Of a stretch of DNA of 64,000 bases, positions 824-26,561 are shown in pieces. The stretch is taken from IMG/VR virus record IMGVR_UViG_3300032046_004423, positions 31,358 to 95,357 of that record, one strand, 5' to 3'. The notes beneath the pieces were generated by a model. It was not told where the DNA came from. It searched no databases and saw nothing but the letters and a program-made list of their open reading frames with translations. Position 1 is the first letter of the stretch; every line of letters starts with the position of its first letter. The stretch is from a virus. Taxonomy: Duplodnaviria > Heunggongvirae > Uroviricota > Caudoviricetes. The position numbers and the translations under genes are program-made.

Positions 824-1093
824 ATGGCAAAAGCAATAGTTAAGGACATACAGGTAGGAGGTGGTATCTGCGTAATTAGTTTGGAGGAGGCCTGTAAGGA
901 ATTTATTAGAATGGTTTCTAGGAGTTCTGATTCTGGCTATCGTGCAAAGATAAACTTCACCATAAAGCTCCCAAGTGGAACTATAAAAGCTATAACCATT
1001 CGAGATGAGGATGGCGAAACCGTAGCTTACGGTGACTTTGAGGGATTGCCTTCAATGCTAGATTATGCAAAAGAGGTTCTTAGGGAGCGATAA
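824..1093 (+). CDS. hypothetical protein (89 aa)
   Basis: ORF with an AG-rich RBS upstream. No recognisable motif. Confidence 0.45.
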   Translation: MAKAIVKDIQVGGGICVISLEEACKEFIRMVSRSSDSGYRAKINFTIKLPSGTIKAITIRDEDGETVAYGDFEGLPSMLDYAKEVLRER

Positions 1094-1627
1094 ATGGTTA
1101 TCATAGGAAAAATAGAACAGGAGATTTGTTACAATACCAGAAGGGTTGGCCAATTAGAAGACCCAAGGATAACTTATTTAGATAATGTATGCCCAAGGTT
1201 TGAAATGCGGAAAGAGCTAACTACCCCTAAGAGACCGGGTAGCCCAGCATTTTTACCAGTATGTGGTAACTGTAGATGGTATAGTGTTCAGGGTTAGTCA
1301 AAAAGGAGGTAAAGATGAAAATTAAAGACAAGGCATTAAGGGTAGTTGAGGCATTAGTTAGTGATGACTTTATGGAGAATATGGAGATGCAACAGTTGAA
1401 TCCACCTGTTGTTGTCAGCCAAGAGGATACTCTTCTAATGTTTAAAAAGCTTAGTATGATTTACAGGATAACTCACTCAGTACAAGAAGATAGTTGCTGT
1501 TATAGTGTGCATGATGATTGGCGAAAGGAACTAGAAACTGTATATAAGAGGTTTAAGAAAGAGAGAATCATTTAGGAGGTAAGGATGAAATTTAAGTTAG
1601 GAAAAAAGGAGTAGTAAGTTAGCAACT

Positions 1628-1739
1628 CTTAGGAGGAGGCCAGCCTTATGGTAGGAAGTGCTTAACCAAGTTTACCTCCTTGGATAATAGAGCTGTTGCA
1701 AGCAGAGTCTTTTATAGTTTAGGCTGGCCTCCTCCTAAG
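1628..1739 (+). promoter_or_regulatory. Long hairpin (18-bp perfect stem, 76-nt loop) whose 3' arm overlaps the SD of the downstream ORF.
   Basis: cttaggaggaggccagcc (1628-1645) is a perfect inverted repeat of ggctggcctcctcctaag (1722-1739). The SD aagagg and ATG 1750 follow immediately. Confidence 0.45.
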
Positions 1740-1749
1740 AGGTACTAAC

Positions 1750-1953
1750 ATGAGGAAGAATGAAGTTCTTTGGCTTGAGGTATTTTGTTGGCTATGTGGC
1801 GAGGAGGATAAACTACCTTTTTCCTTTGACCACTCTTATCCTAAGAACATGGGAAGAGGTACTTGTCCTGCTTGTGGGGCAATTATTTGGATTGAGACCC
1901 GTGATATTATAGAAACCAAGGACAGACGTGAAAGAAGGGGGATACCAAGGTAG
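1750..1953 (+). CDS. small zinc-ribbon protein
   Basis: Two CxxC pairs (CWLCG and CPACG) in 67 aa. Confidence 0.4.
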   Translation: MRKNEVLWLEVFCWLCGEEDKLPFSFDHSYPKNMGRGTCPACGAIIWIETRDIIETKDRRERRGIPR

Positions 1954-1967
1954 AAGTACTAACTAAG

Positions 1968-2324
1968 ATGATGAAAGTTATAATGCCATACATTGGTGGG
2001 GTTCTCTCAGTTAATAGCTACAAGGTAAGAGGGATAGGTGGTGTTGCTACTAATAAAACCAAAAGGGTAGTTGAGCTTTGGATGAATGAGCTTACTGAGA
2101 AAGTTAGGGGATTTGAGCATAATGGTAATCTGACTGTAAGTCTCTTCGGTAAGTTCATTGATGATAGGGCTCCCGACTTAGACAACCTAGCAAAAGTTAT
2201 ACTTGATTCTATAAAGGTTGGGGTTGGATTAGACGATAAGAATATTAAGTTTGTTGCTTTAGGATATGATACTGGGTATAGTAAACCGGTTTTGGAGATA
2301 ACTTTAACAACTGAAGCTGTATAG
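1968..2324 (+). CDS. rusA: RusA-like Holliday junction resolvase
   Basis: 118 aa. DDRAPDLDNLAKVILDSIKVGVGLDDKNIKFV matches the RusA catalytic D..DN..K..DD signature. Confidence 0.6.
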   Translation: MMKVIMPYIGGVLSVNSYKVRGIGGVATNKTKRVVELWMNELTEKVRGFEHNGNLTVSLFGKFIDDRAPDLDNLAKVILDSIKVGVGLDDKNIKFVALGYDTGYSKPVLEITLTTEAV

Positions 2325-2332
2325 GAGATTAT

Positions 2333-2755
2333 ATGATAAAAGGAAGACTACCAGTTAGTATATCTCATTTGAAGGGTATAGTACTGGTTGCTTGCTTCTT
2401 AGTAACTATCTGCTTTATCTACTTCCTGGTAGTGCCCGACGTACAGCATGCTGATAGCACTTATAGTGGACAGGAAGTTTTTCTTACACAGCAATCCTAT
2501 GATACTTTTAAGTCAGATATTAAAGCTAGGGTCTATGAAGACAACTTGACCTTGGGGTCTTTTAATGTTCTTGCCTCCGAACCTCCTATTATAGTTAGTT
2601 TTGGGATTACGACACCATATAACTATGAATTTCCTTATGGTAAGTCAAGAACCCACGATATGGATGTATTTCTTATTACTATCCTGTCCCTTGGGATCTT
2701 TCTTATCTCTGTGGGCTTACCTTCTGTACTTATGTTTGGTGGGGATGAAGAGTAG
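2333..2755 (+). CDS. membrane protein (N-terminal TM, hydrophobic C-terminal TM)
   Basis: Hydrophobic segments at the N and C termini. No catalytic motif. Confidence 0.4.
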   Translation: MIKGRLPVSISHLKGIVLVACFLVTICFIYFLVVPDVQHADSTYSGQEVFLTQQSYDTFKSDIKARVYEDNLTLGSFNVLASEPPIIVSFGITTPYNYEFPYGKSRTHDMDVFLITILSLGIFLISVGLPSVLMFGGDEE

Positions 2756-3524
2756 GCAGTAAATGATAGCAGCGAGAGACAGTAAGGGCAACTACATAGT
2801 ACCAGCAAGCGTAGTTGAAGACTTCAAGTTTTGGAAGAAAATAGCAAAGTATGCTCTTGATACAGAGGCGTCCATAGAGTATAGCTATGCCAGAACTTGG
2901 GGCGAAGAAGGTGAAATAGCTCTTGAAAAGGTTGCTAAGGAATTATTTGGCTTGGATATTGATTTCAATAAGATGAGTAGTAAAGATTAGAGTTGGAAAT
3001 TTAAAGGGAGGTAGATAGTAGAGGTATTGAAGAAGGAAAAAATTTTTGTTGGTAGAAAGGGTAGTTATAAAATACTTGAACATCTACCAGACGGTATGCT
3101 ACTAGTTAAATACATCAGTGGAGAGTGGAACGGTAAGGAAGTTCAAATGAGTCAAGCTCTTCACGAGCGGATACAGTTTAAAATTAAAGTCTCAAATAGA
3201 ACCGGTGAGGAAATAAGAGAAAGAAAGCAAAGTAGAAAAAAAGTAAAGGAGGTTGTAGGAAACTTGCATTATGACTACATCACTATTACTAAAGAAAAAG
3301 CTGATAGAATTAGACCTATACTTAGATGGATTAGGGATGGAGCACCTGGGCAGAAGGAGAGAAAGCTAGCTGCTAGATTGCTAGAGGAAATTGGGAATGT
3401 AAAAGAGTCTGGCTGGAAGCAGCTCATAGTTACAAAAGGGGAGGCTAACTTACTAGACTTCGTTCTTACAGAATACCCAGAGGGCGTGGAAGTAGGAAAG
3501 CAGTTAAAACTTATATAGGAGGGA

Positions 3525-4286
3525 TTGATGGTAGTATCAATAGTAGCTGGGGCAGCAGCAGTAGCGATGGCTGAAGACAAGAATGAGGCAGTTGGGGAGG
3601 AAGTTAGGGAAGTCAGGAAGTCTGTAGTTCTACTATCTGGTGGTATAGACTCAACTGTTACTGCCTATCTAGCTAGAAGAGATACTGGCAAAAAAGGCAA
3701 GCTATATGCTGTATCTCTCGACTATGGACAGGCTCATAAAAAAGAGTTACTTTGTGCTAGTGATATAGGTGAGTTACTCGAGGTTGAAGGCCATCCCCTA
3801 TTCAAGATTCTTGGTATGGGATTACTAGGTAGTAGTCTAGTAGGCAAGGGAGAGATACCAACCGAGGAAACTAGGGGTATTCCTTCAACCTGGGTACCAC
3901 AAAGGAATAGTATCTTTTTAGCATTTGCATTTGCTTATGCGGAGACAATCGGTGCAGATAGAGTATATGTGGGAGTAAATAGTAGGGACTACAGTGGTTA
4001 TCCCGACTGTAGGCCTGAGTTTATCGAGGCTATGAACAAAGCTTTAAACCTAGCTAGTAAAAGGTATGTTGAGTCAGGTAAAGGTATAGGTATTATAGCC
4101 CCCCTACAGTATCTGAGCAAAACTGACATTATCAAGAAGGGTATTGAGTTAAAAGTTAACTTCTCAAAAACCTGGTCTTGCTATAGGGGTAGAGAATTAG
4201 CTTGCGGTAAGTGTCCTTCCTGCCTTATCAGGCTTGAGGCTTTTAGGAAGCTAGGAATGAGGGATCCTATAAGTTACGAACTATAG
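3525..4286 (+). CDS. queC: 7-cyano-7-deazaguanine synthase QueC
   Basis: PP-loop SGGIDS, VSLDYGQAHKKE, DYSGYPDCRPEF, TWSCY and the C-terminal zinc motif CGKCPSCLIR all align with E. coli QueC. Confidence 0.9.
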   Translation: MMVVSIVAGAAAVAMAEDKNEAVGEEVREVRKSVVLLSGGIDSTVTAYLARRDTGKKGKLYAVSLDYGQAHKKELLCASDIGELLEVEGHPLFKILGMGLLGSSLVGKGEIPTEETRGIPSTWVPQRNSIFLAFAFAYAETIGADRVYVGVNSRDYSGYPDCRPEFIEAMNKALNLASKRYVESGKGIGIIAPLQYLSKTDIIKKGIELKVNFSKTWSCYRGRELACGKCPSCLIRLEAFRKLGMRDPISYEL

Positions 4287-4461
4287 GAGGGAGTAGTGGA
4301 AGCAAAGGACACAGTAATGACAGATAAACAACTACAAAAAGTTCCAATAGATAATTACCGTAGTTTACATGACCAAAGAGAAGTAGCCAAAGCTCAGGCT
4401 GAAATCTCTTTCCCAGCTGGGGGAACAGACAGAAAAGGAACGTTGGATTAGGTTCTTCAAA

Positions 4462-4719
4462 ATGATGGGAGTGGAGATTGAACAACCCCAACAATTAAAA
4501 CGCATAATCCCTTGTCTAAAAGAAGGTTGTAAACAGGTGGGGATAAAGGAAGTGGTGGAGTTCATAAATCATTACCCCAATGAGGGTGGTGCAAAACTTA
4601 TAGATAAAAGAATAGTAGGAATATTCAAACCATTAATTCTTAGAGAAGAGTGGCAAGCCCAACTCAAAATCTGGTTTAGAAGTAACCCCAGTATACTAAA
4701 GGAACTTGGAATAACATAG
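4462..4719 (+). CDS. small protein, paralog of the next ORF (shared C-terminal WQAQLK.WF..P..LKE.GIT domain)
   Basis: C-termini EEWQAQLKIWFRSNPSILKELGIT and KCWQAQLKVWFKDSPELLKEWGIT. Confidence 0.4.
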   Translation: MMGVEIEQPQQLKRIIPCLKEGCKQVGIKEVVEFINHYPNEGGAKLIDKRIVGIFKPLILREEWQAQLKIWFRSNPSILKELGIT

Positions 4720-4734
4720 GATTGAAAGGAAGCA

Positions 4735-5085
4735 ATGGAAGATAAAGACACAATATCCAAGATTAGGCGTAAGTATTCTCAATTAGAAGGCAGGGAAGAG
4801 GCTCATTATGAGGAAATACTAGATGAAATTTTCAAGGCAGGGTATGAGAAAGCCTTGACTCATCTTGATGTGCTTAACGATGGCAAGAAGATAGGGAGGA
4901 TGGAAGTAGTGAAATGGAGCAATGAACCTTGCATATTACACGGAAATGCAGATGCACGAATACGGGAAGGCAAGGTGCTTCGTCAAGGTAATTGTTATAA
5001 ATGTTGGCAAGCCCAGTTAAAAGTCTGGTTCAAAGATAGTCCCGAATTGCTCAAGGAATGGGGAATAACAGATGAACAATTATAG
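4735..5085 (+). CDS. small protein, paralog of 4462..4719
   Basis: Same conserved C-terminal motif. Tandem duplication. Confidence 0.4.
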   Translation: MEDKDTISKIRRKYSQLEGREEAHYEEILDEIFKAGYEKALTHLDVLNDGKKIGRMEVVKWSNEPCILHGNADARIREGKVLRQGNCYKCWQAQLKVWFKDSPELLKEWGITDEQL

Positions 5086-6010
5086 TAGTGCAAAGAGAGC
5101 ATGTAGGAGAAGTAATGAATACAGGAAAACCAATTATAGAAATACTACAGTATGAAAAAGAGAAAAAAGCTAGGGAGGATAGGAGGGTTAAAGAGAAGTG
5201 GTGTAAGAGTGTTTACCCAAGAGACGATGGGTTTGTATGCCTAAAAAGTCCTATTCGTGATATTTATAGTGAACCATGTACTACTGCTGACTTTGAAAAC
5301 TGTCCTCTCAGGAGTCGTCTATGAAGTTACTTAACTATACTATTACTTTCCTAACTATAGTTGCATTTATTTTCGCTATTCTAGGAAAGTTATTTGGTGG
5401 CTTTAAATTTGATAAGAGGAGAAAGAGGATGATATCTGAGCTTTACATTGCTAATCCAAAACTGTGTGATTTTAGTGCCCCAAAGGATGTTTATAACTTT
5501 AGGGTACCCACGTCTACGCCCGACTTATCAAAGTTGAGAGAACCCGCTAGGGTAGATTTAAATAAAGCAATTGAGTTATTTATTCCCCCAGTGCAAGGAC
5601 TTAGTGTCCAAAGTAGGAGCAAGGAAATGGAACGAATGCCAAGCTCAAAGGAGTCATCTGCTAGTCGCTCAGATGTGGAGGAAGAATCCCAGGGGGACCG
5701 TATAGAGGGAGAGCGGAGTGTCGCAGCTGATAGCAGTAGTACATCACAGCCTGCAGCCTCTATTCCAAAACCTAACTGGGAGTTAGCTAGGAAGTTATTT
5801 GTAGTAGGTTGGAAGGGGGGAAAGTAAATATGTTGGGACTATTGTTAGTAACTTACTTTATCCTATCTACTATCCTAGCCTATGGTTGGCTTGGCTGGGA
5901 TATACCATTTTGTTGTTTTGGGTTTGCTATAGTTCCGTTAGCAGTCCTACTACTAGTTATCAACAAGATATTCCATAAGAGAGTCATAATTGATGGAATA
6001 GAGATAAGCT

Positions 6011-6580
6011 ATGAATAGTGATAATTTATCCAACTACTGTTCCGGACTAGTAGCTGAACTTATGGCACTCTATCCTAGCTGGGATGGAGCAAAGCAGCTT
6101 AAAGGTACTCAAAACAGACTAGTTAGAATGTATAGTGACTTTTGCTGGACTCAGGAAAGAATTGAGGAAGAATTAAGTAGGCAGTTTAAGGTATTTGATA
6201 ATGGTTATGACGAGATGTTGGTAGTAAAAGACATTTGTGTTTGGACTCTATGTCCTCATCACTTACTACCTTGCCATCTTAAGGTTTTTATAGGATATAT
6301 CCCTGCTGGTAAAGTACTAGGTTTAAGTAAGTTTGCTAGGATTGCTGAAATACTATCTAAGAGGCCTACTATGCAAGAAGCTTACAGTACTGAGCTTGCT
6401 GATTTACTAATGGAAAAATTACAGCCTAGAGGTGTTGCAGTATATGTAGTAGGACAGCATGGTTGTATGACTGCTAGAGGAGTAAAACAGCACAGTGACG
6501 TAGTAACTTCAGTCATGAGAGGTAACTTCCTCAAAGAAGGACCTACCAGGGAAGAATTTTTTGCGGTATGTAGGAGCTGA
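6011..6580 (+). CDS. folE: GTP cyclohydrolase I (FolE)
   Basis: LCPHHLLP (CEHH-type motif), YIPAGKVLGLSKFARI and GQHGCMTARG align with FolE. Confidence 0.85.
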   Translation: MNSDNLSNYCSGLVAELMALYPSWDGAKQLKGTQNRLVRMYSDFCWTQERIEEELSRQFKVFDNGYDEMLVVKDICVWTLCPHHLLPCHLKVFIGYIPAGKVLGLSKFARIAEILSKRPTMQEAYSTELADLLMEKLQPRGVAVYVVGQHGCMTARGVKQHSDVVTSVMRGNFLKEGPTREEFFAVCRS

Positions 6581-6681
6581 GTAAAGATGGAAGCACAAGA
6601 TAAGTTGATTAGGTTAGTATCTGAGTACCCAACGAGTTCTTCTTGGACAGAGCTGGGGAAAACATATAGTAGGGAGAAAAG

Positions 6682-7419
6682 ATGATATTAGCACTTGAGT
6701 GCCCAACTGAACTAGTAGATGAGATACAGCCTCTTGCAGACTTTGACTTTATTCTAGCACACGTTGTACTAAGGAGAGGTAGTTATGCTAGTTACTGTGA
6801 GAAGCCAGGAAGGATGAAGATTTTGGATAATAGTTGCAATGAACTACTCCATCCCTGCACCTTTAAAGAACTCAAGGAAGCTGCTGATATGGTAAAGCCT
6901 GATTATATAGTAGCTCCTGACTATTTGGGAGACTACTTTTCAACAGAGAGGGCTTTAGATGAAGCTATCACTATATTTGATAAGGAAAAAATCTTCCCGG
7001 TCATTCAGGGGCATGAGTTAAAGTATGCACTAGAATGTGCTGACTATATAGCTAGTAAAGGATTTGAAAAGATAGCTGTTCCTTATGATATTACTTCCTC
7101 TAGGGGTAGTAGTCTAGAATCTATGGCAAGTAAGAGGGTTAGAGTCGTTAGAGAGTTATTGCCCCGCTTCGAGTGGGTACACCTACTTGGAATGACTACT
7201 CTTGAGGAGTTAGAAAGCTATAAGAATAAAAAACAGGTAAAGTCAATAGATACAGGAAGTCCTATTTTGCACGGAATAAATGGAATTAGATTTGGTAGGG
7301 ATGAGTTACTTAATAAAAGTATACCTACCTGGAATTTGATGGAAGTTGCGCCTAGAATTAATCTAGCAGATATCTACTATAACATAGGGTATTTAAGGAA
7401 GATACTAAATGCTGACTAA
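6682..7419 (+). CDS. dpdA: minimal TGT-fold DNA transglycosylase (DpdA-like), candidate 7-deazaguanine inserter
   Basis: KILDNS (cf. TGT FTDSGGFQ), IVAPDY (the D156 region), FPVIQG (TGT GIVQGG), HLLGMTT (LMGVG) and KSIDTGSP (the FDCVMPTR Asp) appear in TGT order. 245 aa with no Zn subdomain. Confidence 0.5.
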   Translation: MILALECPTELVDEIQPLADFDFILAHVVLRRGSYASYCEKPGRMKILDNSCNELLHPCTFKELKEAADMVKPDYIVAPDYLGDYFSTERALDEAITIFDKEKIFPVIQGHELKYALECADYIASKGFEKIAVPYDITSSRGSSLESMASKRVRVVRELLPRFEWVHLLGMTTLEELESYKNKKQVKSIDTGSPILHGINGIRFGRDELLNKSIPTWNLMEVAPRINLADIYYNIGYLRKILNAD

Positions 7420-14839: not shown

Positions 14840-16829
14840 AGGAGGTTATAATGAATGGGGGGGAAAACTATTTACGCCACGAGTTGTGCCACAGGTGTTT
14901 ACACTATGCTAGACATCTACGAGTCGTAGGCATTCCCTTTGGGACTGCTATGAAACAACACCTGCAAGATTATTTACTTGGACTTCTTGATGGAATAGAA
15001 GTAGGTACTAGAACTAGTAGGAAACTTATTAAAGAAGGGATTAAGGAGTTTAGAAATAGTAATAGAATAGAGAAGGAAGGTATTTAAGGATGCTTCGAAA
15101 AGTAGTAACGTGGTTACTTGTCAGACTGCATTTAAAGGGTCCTTCTACTAAGCCTGGAATAGAGGTACTGATGGATGTAACACCCTTTGTCTATGGAATG
15201 CTACTCATTGTGGGAGCTATAAAGTGGCTTTGCCCAGAAGGAGTACACATACCCTGGTATAGGCGATGGCAGTACTGGTTGAAGTACTACTTTAGACATT
15301 TGAGAGCTGTTGTAGTCGGTTACTAGATTTGATGAGGTCAGGGAGACGGTAAAGATTAGATGAATAAACTGATTATTCCCGATGTAGAACCTAATCTACT
15401 AGATTTGGAACCTTACAATAAGTGTGTAGAGGAGATTTACGCTAGGCTAAAAACTAGACACCCTGACTGGATTGAGTTAGATGAAGCTTTAAGCTTGGAT
15501 ATAATGTTGAAGAACACTATTCTAATATCCCTAGTAGGAAAGACTTTCATTATACCTGAGAAACTAGTTAGAGCTAGACGGTACTTAACTAGTCTTAATA
15601 GACTGATTAGTAATATGTTTTCCGTAGCAAGGCATTATTCTTGGAATTTTATTGTTATTGGGCCGAGTCTAGAATCACTTGACGTAAGGATAAGAGATTA
15701 TATAACAGGAGTAGAAATTTGGGATGGAAGTACTGAGTGAATCTAGGAGGAGTATTATGAGAAGTAAACTACTTAGAGTCTGCAAAGTACTACAGCGTGG
15801 TATAAATATCTTGATGAAGAAAGTTGAGAATAATGAAGACTGCCCGGGCTTTATAAGGGCGGTGAAACTAGTTGATGATTGTTCTCTGGAACATTTTATC
15901 TTGACTGGTAATTTTAGCTGTGACCTCTGCCCGGTTAAGGAAGCTTGTGTTAGTCTCTGGGATGGATATGCTGTAAATATTGCTCCTTATAGGATTGGGG
16001 GTTCAGGTTTGCATACCTACCCAGAGTTCGCAAAGATGTTTAGAGGTATTAGAAAAACTAGGAGTAGGAAGTTATATAAAGTCATAGAAAGGGGAAAATG
16101 TCTAACTTTATTTGGCAGGATATAGTTCTAATGGTAGGAGGATTTATCTTTGCACCGGCTCTCATTGTTTCCATTGTAAAGAAGGCAAAGTATCCTGTCT
16201 TAACTTCGCTACCTACAGCTTTGGGATTAACCATATTCATTGCCTGCTATGTAACCCTTGGCTTATATCTTGCTGCGATAGCTACAATCTTAACAGCAGC
16301 TTGTTGGTATATACTACTTATTAGGAGATAAGGATTTGCCCGAAGTGCAGGTCTGCTTACTGGGATAAAGAGAGGATTAGAGGATGTTTGAAGTGAAGTT
16401 TGAAATGAAAAGGGCATTATGTTTTCTAGGTTGGGTTTCTACAGTTCTTATTCTAGTTGGAATTAGTATAGCCATTTTAAGTAACTCTACTATTAGAGGA
16501 AACAACCTGGCCTTCGGTAGTTTAGTATCTGTATTTGTCGTAGTTCCTATAGCTTATGCTGTTGTTTCTTATTATTTGGTGTACTCCACCATGGTCAGAT
16601 GGGTGAAGAAGAAAGATAAATATGTAAGACACCTTACTGGGATAAAGAGAGAATGATGACTAACAAGATGATAGTTTTGATAACTACACATTCACTTTGC
16701 TGGATAGGTATATTGGATCACCTATTCTGGCTAACTATACTGGCAATTCCAGCTTTTATCACAATGGTATTTCTAGTCCTTATAGAAGCCAGTACTACAG
16801 GAGAAAATAGGCAGTAAGGATGTATAGAA

Positions 16830-17171
16830 ATGAACATCTTTAAAGAAAAGATAAGTAAGTTTCTAGCTAAAAAGTTGGCTAAGAGACTACCAAAGGAGGA
16901 TTTTCTGGCCCAGCTTAAAGAAGCATGGGCCCCCGAGATGCATGGTAAGGATGTTGATAAGATAGTTGAGGATACTAGAAAAAGAATTAAAGCTTCTGGG
17001 ATAGAAGATGCTTTTAGCTCAGCGGGGATAACAGATGATGACTTGAGGAAGGTAGTACAGGAGATTATAGATAAGAGAGGTGCACCTATAAAAGTTGAGG
17101 AGAAACCTGAAAGGAACGCACCTTGTCCCTGTGGGAGTGGGAAGAAGTATAAGTATTGCTGTGGTAAGTAA
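16830..17171 (+). CDS. SEC-C motif protein
   Basis: C-terminal [18 protein letters not shown] is the SecA-type metal-binding SEC-C motif. Confidence 0.6.
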
Positions 17172-17173
17172 AA

Positions 17174-17231
17174 TGGGTAGTGAAGACAAGAGATACTTCG
17201 GACGAATGAATTCTCTCGTTGCTTGTTCTCC
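17174..17231 (+). ncRNA. Y-RNA-like hairpin 1 (upstream of the Ro60 homolog)
   Basis: 5' gggtagtgaagacaagag and 3' ctcgttgcttgttctccc arms. They share the tagtgaaga and cttgttctcc boxes with two further copies. Confidence 0.4.
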
Positions 17232-17392
17232 CATTAAATATGTGGGCTCTGCCCTGGGTGACTGGACGGTGGTCCCGTACTGCTGGTTATCCCATAACCC
17301 AGCTGGTAGTCCAGATGAAACTAGCGAAAGTAAACTTAGTAAACTAGGTTGAAAAGGGCATCCCACTTACCAATATTACAGACTAGTAAAAA

Positions 17393-17473
17393 GACTGGTA
17401 GTGAAGAGTAGGATTACATCGAAAAATGGATTCGAGCCGAAAGGCCGTTATCCTGCTTGCTTGTTCTCCAGTC
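17393..17473 (+). ncRNA. Y-RNA-like hairpin 2
   Basis: gactggtagtgaagagtaggat pairs with atcctgcttgcttgttctccagtc (terminal gactgg/ccagtc and aggat/atcct). Confidence 0.45.
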
Positions 17474-17592
17474 AAAATGCTTGCCAGTACCCAAACTATA
17501 AAGATAATAAGGAATGGGCGAGGGTGGAATTCCCTAACCGAGTAGCAGGGTGAAGTAGGCTACCGTCTGGTAAGCTAAAAAAGAAAGAAAGA

Positions 17593-17662
17593 GTGGATAG
17601 TGAAGATAGCAGATACTTCGTATAAATCATATACATTAAACTGCTATCACTTGTTCTTCCAC
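17593..17662 (+). ncRNA. Y-RNA-like hairpin 3
   Basis: gtggatagtgaagatagcag pairs with ctgctatcacttgttcttccac. Confidence 0.45.
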
Positions 17663-18048
17663 TAAGCTGGTTACACTTAAGGGCGGAGAAGCAGTAGTAA
17701 GCAACAGGACAGCAACCCGAACTGTCTACTAGCCAGCAAAAGACTAATTGCCTGAGCCGAGGGTCTGTTAATGTTCACAGAAAACCTAGAACAGGTGAAG
17801 TCGAAATACGTAATTCCAAACGGAGTTTCCGACGTGGCTAATAGCAGAGGAAGCGTAGACCTGACGGAAGTATTAGGCTTGGTGGAGACAAGCAGATTAG
17901 ATGGTTGCGTGTAGGCTCAGGCGCAATCTGGGTGAGGGTGCAAGACGAGAAAACTATTTAGTAGGTTGCTCGCAACTTGGTGAAGATAAATGCAGTACCA
18001 AGCTGACAGCCCTTACCCAGTAAAATGTAAAGTAAGAGGAGGTTTTAG

Positions 18049-19350
18049 ATGTCAAAACTAAATGTAAAACAACAACCAATCTACACCCATGAAGGAGGTA
18101 GGGCAAAACGGATAAATGCTGAACAGCAGCTAAGACGTTCTGTTATGGGCTGTCTCCTATGGGAGGACCAGTTCTATGAGGATGGAATTTCTATCGCTGA
18201 GAGGATTAAGAGTCTCGTACCTCAGGTAGAGGCTAAAAAGGTAGCGGAAATAGCTATCGAGGCTAGACTGAAAATGAAGTTACGCCATGCCCCACTCTTA
18301 ATAGTAAGAGAGATGGCTAGGCATGATACTCATAAGAGCTTGGTATCTAGTACACTAAGCCGAATTATTCAGAGAGTTGATGAGCTATCTGAGTTCCTGG
18401 CTATCTACTGGCAAGAAGGAAAGCAACCTATATCAGCTCAGGCTAAGAGGGGTTTAGCTGAGGCTTTTACAAAGTTTGACTCCTACCAGTTAGCTAAGTA
18501 TAACCGGGATGCTACAGTAAAACTGAGAGATGTACTATTTCTCTGTCACGCTAAGCCTAAGGATGAGGCACAGGGCGAGGTATGGAAGCAGTTAGTAGAT
18601 GGAACACTGCCAATTCCTGACACCTGGGAGGTTGCCTTATCTTCCGGTACAGATAAGAAGACTTCCTGGGAGAGATTACTGCGAGAAGATAAGCTAGGAG
18701 CATTAGCTCTCTTAAGGAATCTGCGTAATATGGAAAGTGTTGGTGTCGACAGTCACTTAGTAAAGGAAAGATTATCTACTATGAGAGTAGAAAGAGTATT
18801 ACCATTCAGATTTATAGCTGCTGCGAAGTATGCTCCTCAGTGGGAAAATACTATTGAGGAGGCCATGATGAGGGCACTTTCTAGCGCTGAGAAACTAAGT
18901 GGAAAAACCTTACTACTCATAGATGTATCTGGTAGTATGACTGAAAATCTATCCAGTAAGTCAGAAATGACTAGAATGGATGCTGCTGCTGGATTAGGCA
19001 TATTAGCTAGAGAGATACTTGACTGCAGGGTATTTACTTTTTCTACTAAGTTAGTTGAAATTCCAGCAAGACATGGATTTGCCTTGCGAGATGCTATAGT
19101 TAATAGCCAAATGCATAGTGCTACCTATCTAGGTGATGCTGTTAGGAGCTTGCTAGGACTACCACATGACCGCCTAATAGTTATTTCTGATGAGCAAGCA
19201 CATGATGATATCCCCAATCCAGTAACTAGGAGCTATGTAGTAAATGTGGCTTCATTTGAGAATGGTGTAGGTTATGGAGCTTGGACCCACATAGATGGTT
19301 GGAGTGAGGCAGTACTAGACTATATCCGTGCTTTTGAGAGAGTAGGATAG
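18049..19350 (+). CDS. rsr: Ro60-like TROVE plus vWA protein (Rsr homolog)
   Basis: C-terminal vWA MIDAS LLLIDVSGSM. Long N-terminal alpha-rich region. Preceded by an 870-nt ORF-free region carrying three Y-RNA-like repeats. Confidence 0.55.
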   Translation: MSKLNVKQQPIYTHEGGRAKRINAEQQLRRSVMGCLLWEDQFYEDGISIAERIKSLVPQVEAKKVAEIAIEARLKMKLRHAPLLIVREMARHDTHKSLVSSTLSRIIQRVDELSEFLAIYWQEGKQPISAQAKRGLAEAFTKFDSYQLAKYNRDATVKLRDVLFLCHAKPKDEAQGEVWKQLVDGTLPIPDTWEVALSSGTDKKTSWERLLREDKLGALALLRNLRNMESVGVDSHLVKERLSTMRVERVLPFRFIAAAKYAPQWENTIEEAMMRALSSAEKLSGKTLLLIDVSGSMTENLSSKSEMTRMDAAAGLGILAREILDCRVFTFSTKLVEIPARHGFALRDAIVNSQMHSATYLGDAVRSLLGLPHDRLIVISDEQAHDDIPNPVTRSYVVNVASFENGVGYGAWTHIDGWSEAVLDYIRAFERVG

Positions 19351-20341
19351 TATGCATGAAGAACAGTAAAAGAGGAGACAATGGAAACGAAAGACACTTA
19401 CAACCCCTATCCAGAAAAGGAAAGAAAAGAGATTCCTTCAGCTGCTTGGATATTCACAGAACGGCTAAAGTTTACCAATGGAGTAAACAATAGCGTTCCA
19501 ACTGAATGGGAGCAACACTTAGCTGAAATCTCTTTCAAGGCGGGGATGAAGAAGGGCATTTGGTTATATGCTTGGTGGAAGGATGGGGTGCAGTATGTTG
19601 GTACTACTGGAAGGACACTAGCAGAAGCATTAAAGGAGGTAGATGATGGTGGATAATCCGTATATTCATAACCACAATAATCCGACTTTCCCATGTAAAG
19701 CCTGCATATTTGAGGAGGGCATAGAGGCAAGCCTAAAAGAAGTGGGGAAGTGGTTGGAAAAACATGCTGTAAGCCATACTGATACCTGGGGCAATACAAT
19801 AAAAGGATTTTGGCGGGAAATGTATGGTGACCCTAAACAGAAAGATGATTGGCATAATCTTATTGAAGTCCTAACATGTGGTAAGATACCGGAGGTCTAA
19901 GAATATTAAGGAGATATGGATAGGTATTTAAATAGGCTGGTGCTGTTGAAGTGCCTGAAATATGCGCCAATAGGATTGGAAGAAGTATGAACTCTTTGGC
20001 ACTCTGAGTGGAATGCTCCAATGCAAACGCACGGTGTACTCCAGCTAAGTGAACCGAGCCGAATAGTCGGTCTGCCAGCAGGAAGAAAAAATGAAGATTA
20101 AAGATTTATTAGAGGAAATCGAGCGATGTAAGGGCGAATATGGTGATGAGTTTTTGGAATGGGATGTCTTTACTGAGCAGATATGTGAGGAGGATAAGCA
20201 GGCAAAGAAAGCAAATCCTCAATGGAAGTGGCTCAGAGATAATGAGGACTGGGAGTATCTGGAGTGTGCTGGCTTCTGGACTACGTTTCCTAAGGAAAGA
20301 GCTTTTACTATAAATGTCAATTACTAGAAGAACTCTAATAA

Positions 20342-20983
20342 TTGGGGGATTTATGTATGAAAGAAATAACTGGGGATATTTGGGATTACTATAAGCAGGG
20401 ATATTGGATAGTAATTACTACCAATGGAACTGTGAAGAAAAATGGTGAAGCAGTAATGGGTAAGGGTATTGCTTTGCAGGCTAGGTTGCGATTTCCAGAA
20501 CTACCTCGTAGACTAGGAAGGCTGCTTGATATATATGGCAATATACCTAATATATTTCGTGACCTTCGGGTAATTTCTTTCCCTACTAAGTACCATTGGG
20601 CCTCACCGGCAGATATTGATCTAATAGAAGAAGGTTGCAAGAAGCTTGTGGAGGGACTTAAGCTACTTGGCCTAGATAGACTTTACTTGACCCGTCTAGG
20701 ATGTAGTAATGGTAGACTAGATTGGAAGGATGTCAAGCCAGTCCTTGAAAGATATTTAGATGATAGATTTATAGTAGTGGAGAAGTCTAGAGGAGGAGTA
20801 AGTAATGAAAGTAACTTAATTGGGTTTGAGAAAGTCTATAAAAGTAGTGGCTGTGGTGGTGGTTATTATGCTAACCACGCTGTAAAAAGTGGTATGGATA
20901 ACTCACACCTAAAGTTGGACTGTAAGGCTTGCTATGAGAATAAAACTGGTTGCTTTGCTATTATTACAAAGAAAGAGTCGTAA
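20342..20983 (+). CDS. Macro domain protein (ADP-ribose binding/hydrolase) with a Cys-rich C-terminal extension
   Basis: ITGDIWDY...WIVITTNGTVKKNGEAVMGKGIALQA fits the macro GDIT...IVNAAN...GGGV.GAI signature. RVISFPTKYHWASP fits the FPAISTG...P loop. Confidence 0.5.
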   Translation: MGDLCMKEITGDIWDYYKQGYWIVITTNGTVKKNGEAVMGKGIALQARLRFPELPRRLGRLLDIYGNIPNIFRDLRVISFPTKYHWASPADIDLIEEGCKKLVEGLKLLGLDRLYLTRLGCSNGRLDWKDVKPVLERYLDDRFIVVEKSRGGVSNESNLIGFEKVYKSSGCGGGYYANHAVKSGMDNSHLKLDCKACYENKTGCFAIITKKES

Positions 20984-21010
20984 ACGGGAGTAAGTAAAGG
21001 GGAGGTATTT

Positions 21011-21547
21011 ATGAAAAGGTTTCTTAAAAAGGGTTATGGGATGATGGCTAGTATAGTATCGGTTATACTAGTCCTATGTCTAGTTAGTGGAATTGGTCTA
21101 GTTTCTGCTCAAGGTACCCTCTTCTTGTCTGGAACAATCAACGTGCAGATAGTGCCGCGGCCTCAGGCTTTAGAGGTTGAGTATCTAAGCCCAAGTAATA
21201 ACAGCTGGGTGAATGATACTGTCAATTCAACCTACACTGTAAGTGGTACTAATTGGACTTCGTTTGAAAATAGCACTCCTATAAATCTAACAGGTCTCTA
21301 CACATATAGCACATTTAATATACCTTTTAAAGTAACTAGTAGTGGCTACACAGTAGATAAGATAGTAAGTTTAAGCACTGCTAGCCTATGTATCGATTTT
21401 GCTACTATTAGTGTAAACAGTACCTGGATAAATACAACAGGAGTATCTATACCAGCAAATGGGACTCCTATAACAAACTATGTTATTATCACTACCTATG
21501 GCTGGTCAGGCAATTGTTCAATAATATTGAACTGGAAAGTACTATAG
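21011..21547 (+). CDS. secreted protein rich in NxS/T sequons
   Basis: Signal peptide ...LVSAQG, and at least 10 N-x-S/T sequons in 150 aa. Confidence 0.5.
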   Translation: MKRFLKKGYGMMASIVSVILVLCLVSGIGLVSAQGTLFLSGTINVQIVPRPQALEVEYLSPSNNSWVNDTVNSTYTVSGTNWTSFENSTPINLTGLYTYSTFNIPFKVTSSGYTVDKIVSLSTASLCIDFATISVNSTWINTTGVSIPANGTPITNYVIITTYGWSGNCSIILNWKVL

Positions 21548-21601
21548 GAGTATACTTACTACTCTTAGGCTGGTGGAAATAGTTCGAGAGGAAGGTGAAG
21601 T

Positions 21602-22237
21602 ATGATAGGTCCATTAGATGAAAAGCCTCAAGACAAAGAGACTCCTGATGAAATTCCTTTAGGAGAGGAGTCTTCTGAGGAAGAGCCTTCTGGGGAGGAA
21701 GGCGACGAAGAACTAACCCCTGAGGAGTTAGCTGCCAGGGAAAGACTAGCAAAAGAAAAGCCTTTTGAGGGAGCAGAGGAAGAAAAACCAGTTAAGAAAA
21801 AGTGGCACTTCCCCAAGGGTATAGGGTTGATTGCACTCATTATGCTCCTAGTAATAGGTGGTGTAGTTGCTGCTAGCAGTCTTCTCCTTAGGCACGGAAC
21901 AGCTCCAATAGTAGTGCAGGAGGCTATAGATGTAGAGTATCAGTATCCTAGTCAAAGTTGGTCTAAGTTTAGTAATGGGACAGTGCTAAGTATTGCTAGT
22001 GTTTTTCCAGGGGACAGCGTAACCATACCTTTTAAGATTACCAACTATAGTACTACAAGCTGGACTGTAAGACTTGATACTATAAATCCTAGCAGTATTA
22101 CTGTTACAGGTAGCTGGCTCGGTGCAGGACTCTTAGTCCAAGGTAGCCAAATAGTAACAAGTAATATAGTTATAACAGTAGAAAAAAGTGCTACTGCAGG
22201 AATAGCTACTGTAGAGCTAGATTGGTATAGAGTCTAA
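21602..22237 (+). CDS. membrane-anchored surface protein (acidic N-terminus, one TM, Ig-like sequon-rich ectodomain)
   Basis: E/P/S-rich N-terminus, TM GIGLIALIMLLVIGGVVAASSLLL, then a beta-rich domain with NGT, NYS and NPS. Confidence 0.5.
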   Translation: MIGPLDEKPQDKETPDEIPLGEESSEEEPSGEEGDEELTPEELAARERLAKEKPFEGAEEEKPVKKKWHFPKGIGLIALIMLLVIGGVVAASSLLLRHGTAPIVVQEAIDVEYQYPSQSWSKFSNGTVLSIASVFPGDSVTIPFKITNYSTTSWTVRLDTINPSSITVTGSWLGAGLLVQGSQIVTSNIVITVEKSATAGIATVELDWYRV

Positions 22238-22500
22238 AGATGAAGAGTGGAAGTTACGTATCCAATCGAGCTAGGTGTAAAGAGCTAGCTGACTGGTTGC
22301 AAGCCAAAGACTTGCATAGCGTCAGTGATGAAGATATGGATTTACTAGATTACTTCTTAGCTAAAATAACTGATGGCCTACCAATTCTTACACCAGAATC
22401 TCTCTCTATCTATGGTTCTGCTTCCTATATGGTAGGCTATAAGAAGGGCTATGAGGTTAAAGGCCTGGAAGTTCTAGTAAGTAAATAGTAAAATTCTATG

Positions 22501-22587
22501 ATGCTTGGGAGCAAGATGTAGTAGACCCTTTGCGTGTCATGGGTGCCTCCAGGTTAACCTCCTTAGAGTCATCTTGCTCCCAAGTAT
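22501..22587 (+). promoter_or_regulatory. 19-bp-stem hairpin immediately after a CDS stop (terminator or RNA operator)
   Basis: atgcttgggagcaagatg (22501-22518) pairs with catcttgctcccaagtat (22570-22587), including one G.U. The loop is 51 nt. No T-run follows. Confidence 0.35.
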
Positions 22588-23551
22588 TATAGAAATACAA
22601 AGGAGGTAAGAATGAGCAAAAAGATATCAGGCTATGAGAGCAAATAGGAGGAGAGAGGAGGTGACTATTTGAAATGATTAACGAAGAGAGAATAAAGTTG
22701 ACTTCCAAAGGATATGCTTACACACGAAGTAAGCATCGGATTCAATATCCTTATTACTTGCTCAAATATTGGCGACTAATGCTCGAAGCGAAGCTAAAGG
22801 ATTTTAGAAGGAGGTAAAAATGTTCATAGCCGTAGAAGGTGGTAATTACTGGAGTGCAGAGGAAAAGTTTGTAAAGGAGTTCAGAGATGAAGTGAAGTCT
22901 AGAGGTAGTAGCCTATCGCTTGTGAAAAACCCTGAGGAGTTCCTTGAGTATATGTCATCTGAGCACACGTATGTTAATTTCCTATTTGCCGAAGGTATTC
23001 TATCCTTGATAGATTGTAGGTCTTCGATGGCAAAGGAGAATAGGGATGCAGCATATTGGTTCAGTGAGCACCGGAAAGTTGAGAATGAGCACGTTGTCCT
23101 GAGTGACATCTTTGAGGTGCCCTTTATTGACCTAAGGATAAGAAGGCTGATAACTCACAGAATACGTGTGCTTGATGCCAAAGGCGATGTACGCTACAGA
23201 GTTGTGAGTTTGCACATCGGACGAGTTGTAGTAGGCAAGTTAGGTGAGGGAACCATTCTGGAAGCAATTAAGGAGTCTGATAGACCCCTTACTCCTGAGG
23301 AGATTGAACAGCAAAATAAAGCCTATGAGCAGGCAGTGGTAGATGACGAATGAAAAGAATAGTTAGATTTTGCTTCAACTACTTTTACTGGATAAGCTAG
23401 ATTGCCTTGCTGCTCGTAATAGCAATAGCTGTACCTTATTCTCTGCGGGATACTGTTACCCACTGGTGGCATTTCTCTCTAGTTTTTATTGGCATCTTTA
23501 TTGCTGTTCTAGGTATTGGAATCGGCTTTTATGCACTAAGAGATTGGACTT

Positions 23552-24713: not shown

Positions 24714-26561
24714 ATGAAGATTAGTCTAGCTGAGCTCCCTTTTTACAGTATCCAAGGAGAAGGTGTATACCAAGGAATACCGACTACCTTTGTAAGACTA
24801 CAGGGGTGTAATCTACTAACTCACTGCAGCTGGTGTCTGGTTGATGGTTTAGTTACATATTCTAATAAAGTAGGCAGTGATATTAGTAGGGTTAAGATAG
24901 GTGATAGATTATTAGCTTGCAGCAACCAGGATGAGGTTACAGAAACTGTAGTAACTCAAGTTTTTTCTAGAGAAGTTGAGAACTATTTACTACTAGTCCT
25001 CCCGGAGGGTAGTTCTAGATTTGACCGGGAAAGGTTACTGAGAGTAACTCCCGAGCACCCCGTTATGACTACTCATAGCTGGAAGAGGGCAGAGGAATTA
25101 GTTCCAGGAGATGAGTTATACTATTTATCTGTAGCTCATCAGAATTCAGTAAGAATGACTCTTCACAATCCTCTGTTTAATCCCGAAGTAGTTTCTAAAA
25201 AAATGAGGTCAACTAACTATGAAGAGATAGGCAGGAAGATTTCTAAAGCTAGACTAGCTTTCACTCCAGAGGAGTGGGATGAGATAAATGAGAAAATGCT
25301 AAGCTCTAGAATGGGAGATAGTCCGGAAGCCTCACTCAAGAGGTTTGAGAGTGATACACTGGAATGGAAGCAAGCAAGGGATAGTTTATTTGAGAAGTTT
25401 AAGCAGAGAAAGCATAAGCTGGAACGCTTAGTGGATTGGAGGAAGTTAGCTGGTATGCAGGAAGGGTTATACGATAGTAGTGGAAGAAGGGTATTCTCAG
25501 AAGAGCATAAAAGGGCAATCTCAGAGGTTAAGAGTGAGAATCCTACTAGGCTCTTCGGTAGTGACAATCCGAACTGGCAAGGAGGAATTTCCTCCTATAG
25601 TAGGTGGACATCCAGATTGGAGAGAGAGGCAGTTTATGAAATCCTAACTGGGAGGGATGGGGAGATATGCCAAGCTGAAAGCTGTAATAATAAAACTGAC
25701 TTAGTTATTCACCATGAGGATTTTGATATAACCAATGACTCTGATAATAACTTAGTACTACTCTGCAGGTCTTGTAACAGTTCGGTTAATCATGGAAGAT
25801 ACCCTCTTAAACTAAAGTCCGGGAAAGTTTGCCCTATTCTAGCCGTGAAGAATGGACTACCGATAGTAGAGATTAGGAAAATTAGCAAAAAGGTGAGGGT
25901 ATATAACCTGCATTGCGAGCCTTATAATAACTACTTCGTTAATGGTATCCTATGCCACAACTGTGATACTGCTTACGCCCAAAATGGTAGTAAAGGTATC
26001 TTAATGGAAGTAGAAGATGTGCTCAGTCAGTGTGCTAAGCTAGAGGGAAGGACGTTTAAGCACTGGGTATGTATTACTGGTGGGGAGCCTCTATTTCAGC
26101 CTGAGGCTCTCCATGAGCTAGTTAAAGGACTAAGAAGGTATGGATTCAGAGTTGAGATAGAAACAAACGGAACCATTTCTAAACCCTATTGGTGGACTCT
26201 AGCTAACTGTTGGGTAGTAGACATTAAATGTCCCAGTTCTGGAGTATGTGGAGCTAGTTTGGTTGAGTGGTTTAACTCAAGGGTAGATGACCAGATAAAA
26301 TTTGTTGTTGGTAGCAAAGAAGATTTAAACTTCGCTAAAGCTATGATTATGAAGAATATAGCTAGAAATCCAGTAGTTCTAGTTAGCCCAGTTATTATAC
26401 TTGGAAAATCCACCAAAATACTAACTATTGATAGCCAGGAGTACCAAGACCAGTTTGGAATGTTGTGGATGCAGGAAGTAGTTGAATTTTGTAAAGAATT
26501 AAAGGTAAGATTTAGTTTGCAAGTACATAAAGTTGTATACGGTAACAAAAAGGGAGTATAG
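24714..26561 (+). CDS. queE: 7-carboxy-7-deazaguanine synthase QueE (radical SAM) interrupted by an intein
   Basis: Exteins [30 protein letters not shown] + CDTAYAQ...WVCITGGEP...VVYGNKKGV align with B. subtilis QueE (GCDYSCSWCDSAF...LLWGNKRGV). The spliced product would be about 239 aa. Confidence 0.85.
   Translation: [615 protein letters not shown]
24834..25961 (+). mobile_element. Intein (376 aa) with an HNH homing-endonuclease domain, inserted before the third cluster-ligand Cys of QueE
   Basis: Starts with C (CLVDGLVTY, block A). Block B is [10 protein letters not shown]. The HNH motif is [29 protein letters not shown]. It ends NGILCHN followed by +1 Cys (CDT). Confidence 0.75.

Follow-up and report, generated by a model that had tools for sequence, protein, structure and literature searches.

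Ro60 and its Y RNAs form particles whose conservation extends from bacteria to humans, and lupus and Sjogren syndrome have Ro60 as a major autoantigen. The lower stem of the hY and xY RNAs comprises a terminal helix, a single-nucleotide bulge in the 5' strand, 2 bp, an asymmetric loop, an upper helix and a variable loop, with CUUG adjoining the terminal helix on the 3' strand. To our knowledge, the 2025 study of phiLo is the only biochemical study of a phage Ro60. In vitro, the phiLo protein phiRo60 associates with phage RNAs, including the proposed Y-like hairpins Yrl1 and Yrl2, and with the PNPase of the host, and the reported effect on PNPase was attenuation, not activation; Yrl1 and Yrl2 were picked upstream of phiRo60 by a CGAA motif and RNAfold (PMC12135203). 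In the Rsr-Yrn1-PNPase particle of D. radiodurans (RYPER), the Y RNA binds Ro60 by one module and tethers PNPase by another, and structured RNA is channeled into the exonuclease (PMC4201824, PMC12135203). Chen et al. (2014) took as Y RNAs those within 4 kb of a Ro60 orthologue on the same strand, reported at least one Y RNA with a tRNA-like domain per species, and proposed GNCGAAN0-1G near the 5' end as the Rsr contact (PMC4201824).

Here we describe a locus in the window, the whole 64,000-nt stretch of viral DNA that was analyzed (Table 1). The locus is very probably a phage Ro60/Y-RNA module in which three hairpins act as Y-like small RNAs that dock on Ro60. The pairing of Ro60 with Y RNAs is already known from phages and bacteria, and the locus is a new example of it, not a new type of system.

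Table 1. Features of the Ro60 locus in the window (R2, covariance model of the RNA family).
Feature	Coordinates	Strand	Evidence
Y-RNA-like element 1, 64 nt	17172-17235	+	R2 54.9 bits, E 2.6e-14; exact box pattern; fold z -1.9
Spacer 1, 157 nt, non-coding	17236-17392	+	fold z -2.3; no model match
Y-RNA-like element 2, 81 nt	17393-17473	+	R2 46.3 bits, E 1.1e-11; fold z -4.1
Spacer 2, 118 nt, non-coding	17474-17591	+	one orphan GGUGAAG box, 17549
Y-RNA-like element 3, 72 nt	17592-17663	+	R2 61.0 bits, E 3.6e-16; fold z -3.4
Tail, 385 nt, non-coding	17664-18048	+	orphan GGUGAAG boxes 17794, 17979; fold z -2.1
TROVE + vWA protein gene, 433 aa	18049-19350	+	Pfam TROVE, PHROG 850, 9KOP, Ro60/Rsr profile matches

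The original prediction gave the 433-aa protein a Ro60 architecture, with an N-terminal helical TROVE domain followed by a C-terminal vWA domain, and our searches bore this out. PF05731 (TROVE), the Pfam family proposed for the search, was matched at 57.1 bits, above its cutoff of 23, and was also matched by 19 of 19 aligned homologues; PHROG 850 was matched with an E-value of 1.9e-46. The closest solved relative is phiRo60 of the Thermus phage phiLo, whose structures (9KOP/9L5Y) were matched over their full length; the crystal structure 9KOP aligned end to end with residues 12-428 (E 2e-23). The two proteins share ~26% identity and differ in length (~500 aa for phiRo60, 433 aa here). A profile of the family matched human Ro60 (9NEN, E 1.8e-20), Xenopus Ro60 (1YVP, 4.8e-18) and the D. 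radiodurans Rsr (2NVO, 6.9e-15) over ~380 positions. The predicted MIDAS motif DVSGSM was located at residues 292-297 (nt 18922-18939), and D292, S294, G295, S296 and D381 were invariant across 19 homologues; DVSGSM and TDEQ of phiRo60 line up with the MIDAS motif of the window protein. The score against PF25045 (vWA_Ro60) was 22.4, below the cutoff of 27.7, whereas 17 of 19 relatives match this family.

The window protein scored 23 bits against the NCBIfam Rsr equivalog NF041674, for which the cutoff is 900. Judged by sequence, it is a member of a shorter phage clade and no equivalog of cellular Rsr. Its predicted secondary structure is all-helical to approximately residue 280 and alpha/beta thereafter, consistent with the Ro60 fold, and the full-length alignment to 9KOP suggests that the protein would adopt the closed-ring fold. 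A single-sequence AlphaFold2 model had a pLDDT of 43.9, too poor for a fold search. A strong Shine-Dalgarno sequence, AAGAGGAGG, lies at 18034-18042 ahead of the ORF. At the DNA level, comparison of positions 15000-22900 with the phage collection returned just short coding matches within the TROVE gene.

The gene is preceded by the 877-nt stretch (17172-18048) that had been described as free of ORFs, and no ORF longer than 50 aa lies wholly inside it. The automatic gene caller on the source contig called an ORF of 73 aa that overlaps element 1 and another of 47 aa (17771-17914), the latter with GAGGG 7 nt ahead of its ATG, and if the region encoded such small proteins the hairpins would be incidental. 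This is very unlikely, since codon-usage scores of the five small ORFs ranged from -0.02 to -0.10, compared with 0.01 to 0.39 for nine neighboring small genes, the 73-aa call overlaps a conserved RNA element, and similar sequence was found in no related locus. The ORFs of 47 and 40 aa in the tail had non-coding scores, and the small ORFs of 17172-18048 were rejected as coding on codon usage.

The three paralogous hairpins of the original prediction were recovered at the positions given for them, with ends refined by the covariance model R2, which was built without any window sequence. The pattern TAGTGAAGA-N25-55-CTTGTTCT has exactly three matches in the 64-kb window, all of them the hairpins, and none in 100 shuffles; each copy folds into a hairpin. 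The elements sit 386-877 nt upstream of the TROVE ATG on the + strand, and element 1 begins one base past the stop codon of the upstream gene. The outer part of element 1 consists of a terminal stem (P1), a bulged U, a 2-bp AG/CU step and an internal loop (5' UGAA / 3' GCUUGUU), and the inner part consists of a stem (P2), an AUACUUC box and a small apical loop. Element 3 has the same architecture with a perfect 8-bp P2. Element 2 shares P1, the boxes and P2, and its apical part is branched into two small hairpins; its P2 contains G-U pairs that are compatible with the + strand alone. Common to all three are the 5' box UAGUGAAG, the AUACUUC box and the 3' box CUUGUUCU, and both the terminal and inner stems carry compensatory changes between the copies.

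Scans with curated models were negative. The search with Rfam Y_RNA (RF00019) suggested with the original prediction gave no match at the gathering threshold or at E<=1 in the whole window, nor even at E<=10 in 17100-18100, and the same scopes yielded no match to YrlA (RF02553). ARAGORN found no tRNA or tmRNA in the 64-kb window. The sole Rfam outputs, for sucC and an lncRNA family, were regarded as chance matches. Because the Y_RNA scan was negative, the Y-like identity of the hairpins is supported by comparative analysis, not by a curated model. None of the first 29 related loci contained the exact box pattern. Because the boxes vary among loci, the scan had to be loosened and then replaced by covariance models, and the models R1 and R2 were defined in this analysis from related loci.

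The covariance model recovered 98 elements in 28 of 29 viral or phage loci and 275 elements in 69 of 80 metagenome loci, the latter all upstream on the TROVE strand; 10 of the 11 metagenome loci without elements have less than 420 nt of upstream sequence. Members of this RNA family share P1, a bulged U, 2 bp, an asymmetric YGNA/GYUUGUU loop, an 8-bp P2 and a UUACUUC box. In a MAFFT alignment of 37 short elements, which was unfitted and for whose selection P2 played no part, P2 was paired at 85%, compared with 44-50% in slid controls, and had double changes in 8 of 8 pairs; the 98-sequence family alignment was 92.6% paired. The consensus of the 5' box is GG-YG-NAG, and a G-to-A change in it covaries across the family with a C-to-U change in the 3' box. 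The three window copies have AGUGAAG as the 5' box, a 5/7 match to GNCGAAG; for one of its two departures, the 3' box with which it pairs has a compensating C-to-U change. Arrays reach 8 or more copies in some related loci. The adjoining TROVE clade takes in crAss-like phages, Caulobacter and Brevundimonas jumbo phages, and Xanthomonas and Microcystis phages. The predicted Y-RNA-like identity is thus supported by a covarying family that adjoins this clade in nearly every related locus.

As tandem imperfect hairpins between genes, without an Rfam match and with a minus strand that also folds, the elements might be taken for generic intergenic repeats (REP-like sequences, terminators or attenuators) or for decayed tRNA relics with no tie to Ro60. 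However, all 373 of 373 matches in related loci adjoin the TROVE gene on its strand, nearly all of them directly upstream, whereas elsewhere in the 64 kb just one weak R2 match was obtained (62203-62284, 25 bits), antisense within an 881-aa ORF and treated as chance. Moreover, the unpaired boxes are conserved more than the stems, the G-U pairs suit one strand, and no U-tract was found 3' of the hairpin stems. An origin as generic repeats is therefore extremely unlikely.

The same linkage bears on whether the hairpins are cis-acting operators in a long leader of the TROVE mRNA, through which the protein would autoregulate translation or stability with no separate small RNAs. Elements always lie on the strand of the gene, ending a median of 28 nt before the TROVE start codon and overlapping the annotated start in a few loci; in the window, no terminator separates the hairpins from the gene, and the orphan GGUGAAG boxes run through the 385-nt tail to the ribosome-binding site. 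A scan for promoters and terminators around the elements gave no clear signal, with nothing above shuffled expectation. However, crAss-like and Microcystis phages have the elements downstream of the gene, where they cannot be a 5' leader, and arrays that reach 8 or more copies, many of which include the whole tRNA-like domain, resemble RNA genes. In addition, the Salmonella Y RNAs, encoded beside rsr, were isolated in complex with Rsr as separate ncRNA species (PMC4201824). Operator and small-RNA roles could coexist, and we consider a purely cis-acting role improbable.

Comparison with described Y RNAs favors docking RNAs of the Ro60 type. All three window elements lie within the 4-kb, same-strand distance used by Chen et al. 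(PMC4201824). Like YrlA and YrlB of Salmonella and Mycobacterium (RF02553; PMC4201824), they are encoded a few hundred bases from the Ro60 gene on the same strand, and their paired 5' and 3' ends form a stem with an asymmetric internal loop; the bacterial 5' motif, GNCGAA(N)G, is approached by their AGUGAAG box at 5 of 7 positions. Exact GGCGAAG, found in 54 of 235 family members (23%), equals the GNCGAAN0-1G motif proposed for Rsr contact (PMC4201824). The window elements are short (64-81 nt) and without a tRNA-like domain, as is YrlB. Longer members of the family carry a tRNA-like domain with a T-arm, an acceptor-like stem and a D-arm, and a T-loop-bearing element occurs in 22 of 28 related loci; these sister elements resemble YrlA, and those of CcrColossus scored 42, 30.5 and 29.9 bits against Rfam YrlA, below the gathering score of 69. 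In contrast, the 64-kb window has no RF02553 match and no tRNA-like domain by ARAGORN or Rfam, which departs from the one such Y RNA or more per species in Chen et al., and the boxes UAGUGAAG, AUACUUC and CUUGUUCU are specific to the short-TROVE phage clade. The rsr-rtcBA operon context of bacterial Rsr is also absent at the window locus.

Beside the canonical Ro genes of actinophages, R2 had no match, so the box module is specific to its clade and not universal to Y RNAs, and homology to validated Y RNAs rests on the architecture, the short motif and the tRNA-like domain of the sister elements. With metazoan Y RNAs (RF00019; 1YVP), the window elements share the hY/xY lower-stem layout and the 3' CUUG. 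They differ in that the bulge is U here and C in the metazoan RNAs, and the flanking step is GG/CC or AG/CU here and GA/UU there. They also have no RF00019 match and form tandem arrays beside a protein gene, and the animal transcription and end signals are inapplicable to a phage locus. The phiLo locus resembles that of the window in that a TROVE + vWA/MIDAS protein is phage-encoded and proposed Y-like hairpin RNAs adjoin its gene on the same strand. The family model found no member upstream of phiRo60 and one 25-bit candidate, in MH673673, just downstream of it, whereas the window has three clear members upstream of the gene.

We infer that the three hairpins would be read from the + strand, probably in one transcript with the TROVE gene, which may also take in the upstream gene, and that this transcript would then be processed into small RNAs of ~64-81 nt. 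The bulged stem, formed by P1, the bulged U, the 2 bp and the 5' YGNA / 3' GYUUGUU loop, would be the docking site for the ring of the phage Ro60. Going by the Ro60 RNPs of cells and of phiLo, the bound RNAs would most likely gate entry to the Ro60 cavity and/or link Ro60 to exoribonucleases of the host, for example PNPase. The decay or quality control of structured RNAs would thereby be re-tuned during infection; the manipulation of host RNA decay through a Ro/PNPase-type RNP, as originally proposed, is plausible and agrees with the in vitro data on phiLo (PMC12135203). In contrast to RYPER, the short window RNAs have no recognizable PNPase-binding module, and the phage would need the PNPase of its host.

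With a 433-aa Ro60, a set of three Y-like RNAs that are all short, and no tRNA-like domain, the window locus is a clean minimal example that can help to define the smallest RNA module able to bind Ro60. The comparative set is worth more than the locus itself: in the short-TROVE phage clade, tandem arrays of Y-like RNAs with sharply conserved boxes are almost always present, and the set yields a specific, testable model of the binding site and a covariance model that finds elements missed by Rfam.

Further structured RNA had been proposed at 17700-18040; this claim found no support, as the fold z-score there was just -2.1, Rfam gave no match in the tail, and no similarity was found in 114 related loci. 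Across the spacers and tail, blastn and nhmmer found no similarity to 113 related loci, and the covariance model with filters off gave at most 4.5 bits for additional family members. The tail (17664-18048) could serve as the TROVE mRNA leader or could be RNA of another kind. An unlikely, more speculative reading is that the ~660 nt of phage-unique spacers (10x the norm) and tail, with their three orphan GGUGAAG boxes, would be a new kind of Ro60-associated RNA, for example, a multi-site scaffold or sponge replacing the missing YrlA module; separately, the box-defined family of ~370 elements with its short and long forms, may be an undescribed one that co-evolves specifically with the short phage TROVE clade. 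The spacers of 157 and 118 nt are far longer than the median inter-element gap of 11 nt in the RNA family. Fold z-scores of the spacers and tail were weakly below those of shuffles (-1.8 to -2.3), and orphan GGUGAAG boxes were enriched, with three across spacer 2 and the tail.

The 16.8-19.4 kb part of the window read as the original prediction had described it: an 877-nt region with no ORF longer than 50 aa wholly inside it, followed by a 433-aa ORF with a strong ribosome-binding site. The stop codon of the upstream gene, which encodes a 113-aa protein with a zinc-binding SEC-C motif at its end (PF02810, 37.7 bits), abuts the first Y-like RNA, and the two may therefore be co-transcribed. The window has a phage-like content (DNA polymerase genes, a QueE-like radical-SAM gene and strongly strand-polarised gene blocks) and matches a 28.4-kb contig in the Logan assembly of SRR9617926. 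A 615-aa ORF whose C-terminal part resembles QueE-type radical-SAM proteins also has matches to intein/HINT and HNH endonuclease; it probably represents a queuosine-pathway gene interrupted by an intein.

The predicted TROVE identity of the 433-aa protein was confirmed by the Pfam TROVE model (57 bits; cutoff, 23), and a profile of 19 clade members matched human Ro60 (E 1.8e-20), Xenopus Ro60 (4.8e-18) and D. radiodurans Rsr (6.9e-15) over approximately 380 positions. The vWA models were just sub-threshold, and PHROG 850 'RNA-binding protein' matched with an E-value of 2e-46. The best solved relative was the 'TROVE domain-containing protein' 9KOP/9L5Y (E 2e-23, residues 12-428), which is phiRo60 of the Thermus phage phiLo (PMC12135203), as confirmed by tblastn. 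That alignment takes in DVSGSM and the later D-E-Q, and the MIDAS residues D292, S294, S296 and D381 were invariant in the alignment with clade homologues. The NCBIfam Rsr equivalog model scored 23 bits against a cutoff of 900; judged by sequence, the protein is not an equivalog of cellular Rsr and belongs to a shorter phage clade. Relatives with 40-54% identity were found in Caulobacter phage CcrColossus, Brevundimonas jumbo phages, Xanthomonas and Xylella phages, Ralstonia phage RsoM2USA, Microcystis phage Mvi-JY20 and crAss001-like phages, and those from metagenomes (more than 560 stretches) reached 67%. Single-sequence AlphaFold2 gave a pLDDT of 44, too poor to show a ring, so the putative ring shape is taken from homology.

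The Rfam match that had been expected for the hairpins was absent from 17172-18048, even at E<=10, and the decisive evidence is therefore comparative. In CcrColossus, approximately eight tandem elements occupy a long non-coding stretch upstream of the TROVE gene and carry the boxes of the window (5' GGUGGCGUAG...GAUACUUCG and 3' CUUGUUCCCC); three of them match Rfam YrlA sub-threshold through T-/D-arm sequences (42, 30.5 and 29.9 bits). This layout recurred in the upstream regions of all 13 other loci that were read. Short elements were collected using a loose rule (5' T[GA]G[TC]G, 3' T[TA]C[CT], flanks complementary over 5 bp or more, and a box resembling TACTTC), and 37 were aligned with MAFFT. 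From the outside inward, the architecture consists of helix P1 (5-16 bp), a bulged U, a 2-bp step (GG/CC or AG/CU), an internal loop (5' YGNA, 3' GYUUGUU), the 8-bp inner helix P2, and a UUACUUC box followed by a variable apical part. P2 was not used in selecting the elements, nor was the alignment fitted to structure; P2 was 85% paired, with 8 of its 8 pairs changed on both sides. When the 3' partners were slid by 1-3 columns as a control, 44-50% of the cells of the whole structure were paired.

With the covariance model of this seed (R1), 98 elements were detected, spread over 28 of 29 viral or phage loci and invariably on the strand of the TROVE gene; the alignment of these elements was 92.6% paired. 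A second model (R2), built from those 98 only and excluding the window sequence, detected 275 further elements in 69 of 80 metagenome loci, all upstream of the TROVE gene and on its strand; 10 of the 11 loci with no match have less than 420 nt of upstream sequence. That the hairpins are generic repeats or terminators has almost no probability in our estimate, being ruled out by this strand and locus specificity.

The three predicted hairpins with common boxes were confirmed. The pattern TAGTGAAGA-N25-55-CTTGTTCT occurs exactly three times in the 64 kb, always within 17172-18048, and never in 100 shuffles; each hairpin folds more stably than shuffled controls (z-scores, -1.9, -4.1 and -3.4), and R2 gave 54.9, 46.3 and 61.0 bits for elements 1, 2 and 3, respectively (E 4e-16 to 1e-11). 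Their 2-bp step is AG, whereas that of most family members is GG (GG/CC, 218; AG/CU, 9). Since the first-position G-A change is accompanied by a C-U change in the 3' box, the window copies can be classed as a covarying variant rather than degenerate copies. A further R2 match, with 25 bits and four non-canonical pairs, lies antisense within an 881-aa ORF and is probably due to chance.

Coordinates of features in the window and, local to each locus, at related TROVE loci
Locus	Feature	Position	Strand
Window	SEC-C-motif gene	16830-17171	+
Window	Element 1	17172-17235	+
Window	Spacer 1	17236-17392	
Window	Element 2	17393-17473	+
Window	Spacer 2	17474-17591	
Window	Orphan GGTGAAG motifs	17549-17555, 17794-17800, 17979-17985	+
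Window	Element 3	17592-17663	+
Window	Tail	17664-18048	
Window	433-aa TROVE gene	18049-19350	+
Window	615-aa ORF	24714-26561	+
Window	881-aa ORF	59660-62305	-
Window	R2 match, probably chance	62203-62284	+
phiLo (L115, MH673673)	Family-model match	3984-4047	+
PhiCrAssBcn1 (L116)	Elements	3927-4680	
Mvi-JY20 (L117)	Elements	3850-4060	
CcrColossus (L030)	Annotated tRNA; Y-like element	2128-2195; 2124-2288	
Gurke (L031)	Annotated tRNA; Y-like element	2811-2885; 2813-2944	
Gurke (L031)	Permuted tmRNA	6387-6732	
UViG_3300020583_000158 (L008)	tRNAs, RNase P RNA	860-6050	
Forza (L119)	tmRNA, tRNAs	4093-6696	

The reading of the hairpins as Y RNAs was supported by the covarying family, its TROVE linkage and sister elements bearing YrlA features. 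Approximately 40% of family members exceed 100 nt, with a typical length of about 130 nt; apically they resemble YrlA in having a T arm, an acceptor-like stem and a D arm. Elements with a T-loop occur in 22 of 28 loci. The family also shares its layout with the lower stem of animal Y RNAs: a terminal helix, a one-base 5' bulge, two pairs, an asymmetric loop and an upper helix. In 23% of members the 5' box, GG-YG-NAG, takes the exact form GGCGAAG, which corresponds to the GNCGAAN0-1G motif of bacterial Y RNAs; Chen et al. proposed this motif as the site of Rsr contact, reasoning by analogy from GGUCCGA, which Xenopus Ro60 contacts (PMC4201824). R2 gave no match beside the canonical Ro genes of Microbacterium, Gordonia and Streptomyces phages, where Rfam YrlA gave 33-52-bit matches; the box sequences are thus specific to the short-TROVE clade. 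Curated Rfam membership tests exclude the window RNAs. On sequence grounds they are homologous to the YrlA-bearing sister elements, and by analogy they may work like Y RNAs. Upstream of the TROVE genes of CcrColossus and Brevundimonas phage Gurke, the annotated tRNA-Gln and tRNA-Ser, both below the Rfam tRNA threshold, lie within Y-like elements and are probably mis-annotated tRNA-like domains of YrlA-type RNAs.

In established Ro60 biology, Y RNA gates the Ro60 cavity, and Rsr, Y RNA and PNPase form the RYPER complex. Both phage RNAs and T. thermophilus PNPase are bound in vitro by phiRo60, which attenuates the PNPase (PMC12135203). The protein family, the conserved RNA structure with conserved unpaired boxes, and the near-universal same-strand gene linkage make a role of the three window RNAs as ligands of the phage Ro60 the best-supported reading. 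By analogy with these systems, their bulged stem would be the docking site, and in infected cells they would influence which RNAs gain access to Ro60 and to host exonucleases. It is improbable that the elements of this locus act purely in cis as an autoregulatory leader, and as a general explanation this is contradicted by phages that have them downstream of the TROVE gene. In crAss001, TROVE belongs to the early genes (PMC8375218), and TROVE genes often lie inside arrays of phage tRNAs, in some cases together with RNase P RNA or tmRNA; both observations fit a role in structured-RNA handling early in infection.

The locus has several peculiarities. The window has short elements only (three, of 64-81 nt), no tRNA or tRNA-like RNA was detected within its 64 kb, and 5 of the 28 loci with matches likewise have exclusively short, T-loop-free elements (L001, L006, L020, L023 and L025). 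The inter-element gaps are 157 and 118 nt (family median, 11 nt), and 385 nt separate the last element from the ATG (median, 28 nt). The extra structured RNA predicted at 17700-18040 was not borne out: the spacers and tail showed weak excess folding, no family-model match and no similarity to any related locus compared. That the region encodes small proteins is unlikely, codon usage being against it; the small ORFs of these parts are not coding-like. The spacers and tail contain three orphan GGUGAAG motifs, which fit the family 5' box, where approximately 0.2 would be expected from the whole-window density; the third lies within a small hairpin (CUUGG-N17-CCAAG).

Apart from the extra structured RNA and the Rfam match, the original prediction held in both observation and interpretation. 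Ro60 with adjacent Y-like RNAs was reported for 22 phages in 2014 (PMC4201824) and studied structurally in 2025 (PMC12135203); the pairing is thus already known and this locus is a further example, to which we add a clade-specific RNA model and the unexplained extra non-coding sequence. In phiLo, the sole match of the family model (25 bits, E 1.5e-5) lies just downstream of phiRo60, overlapping the annotated CDS phiLo_25, and the upstream region in which the 2025 paper placed Yrl1/Yrl2 gave no family-model match; phiRo60 may therefore have as its conserved partner an RNA other than those tested. Elements unannotated in the records also lie downstream of the TROVE gene in Bacteroides phage PhiCrAssBcn1 (three with E<1e-4 and a weak fourth, E 0.16) and in Mvi-JY20 (two, followed by tRNAs); in crAss001-like phages they fill an unannotated 850-nt gap. 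The tRNA-array setting is common to the short and canonical clades: 25 tRNA matches and a bacterial-type RNase P RNA adjoin the TROVE gene of an IMG/VR virus (L008), Gurke has a permuted tmRNA, and a tmRNA and 13 tRNAs lie just downstream of the TROVE gene in Gordonia phage Forza.
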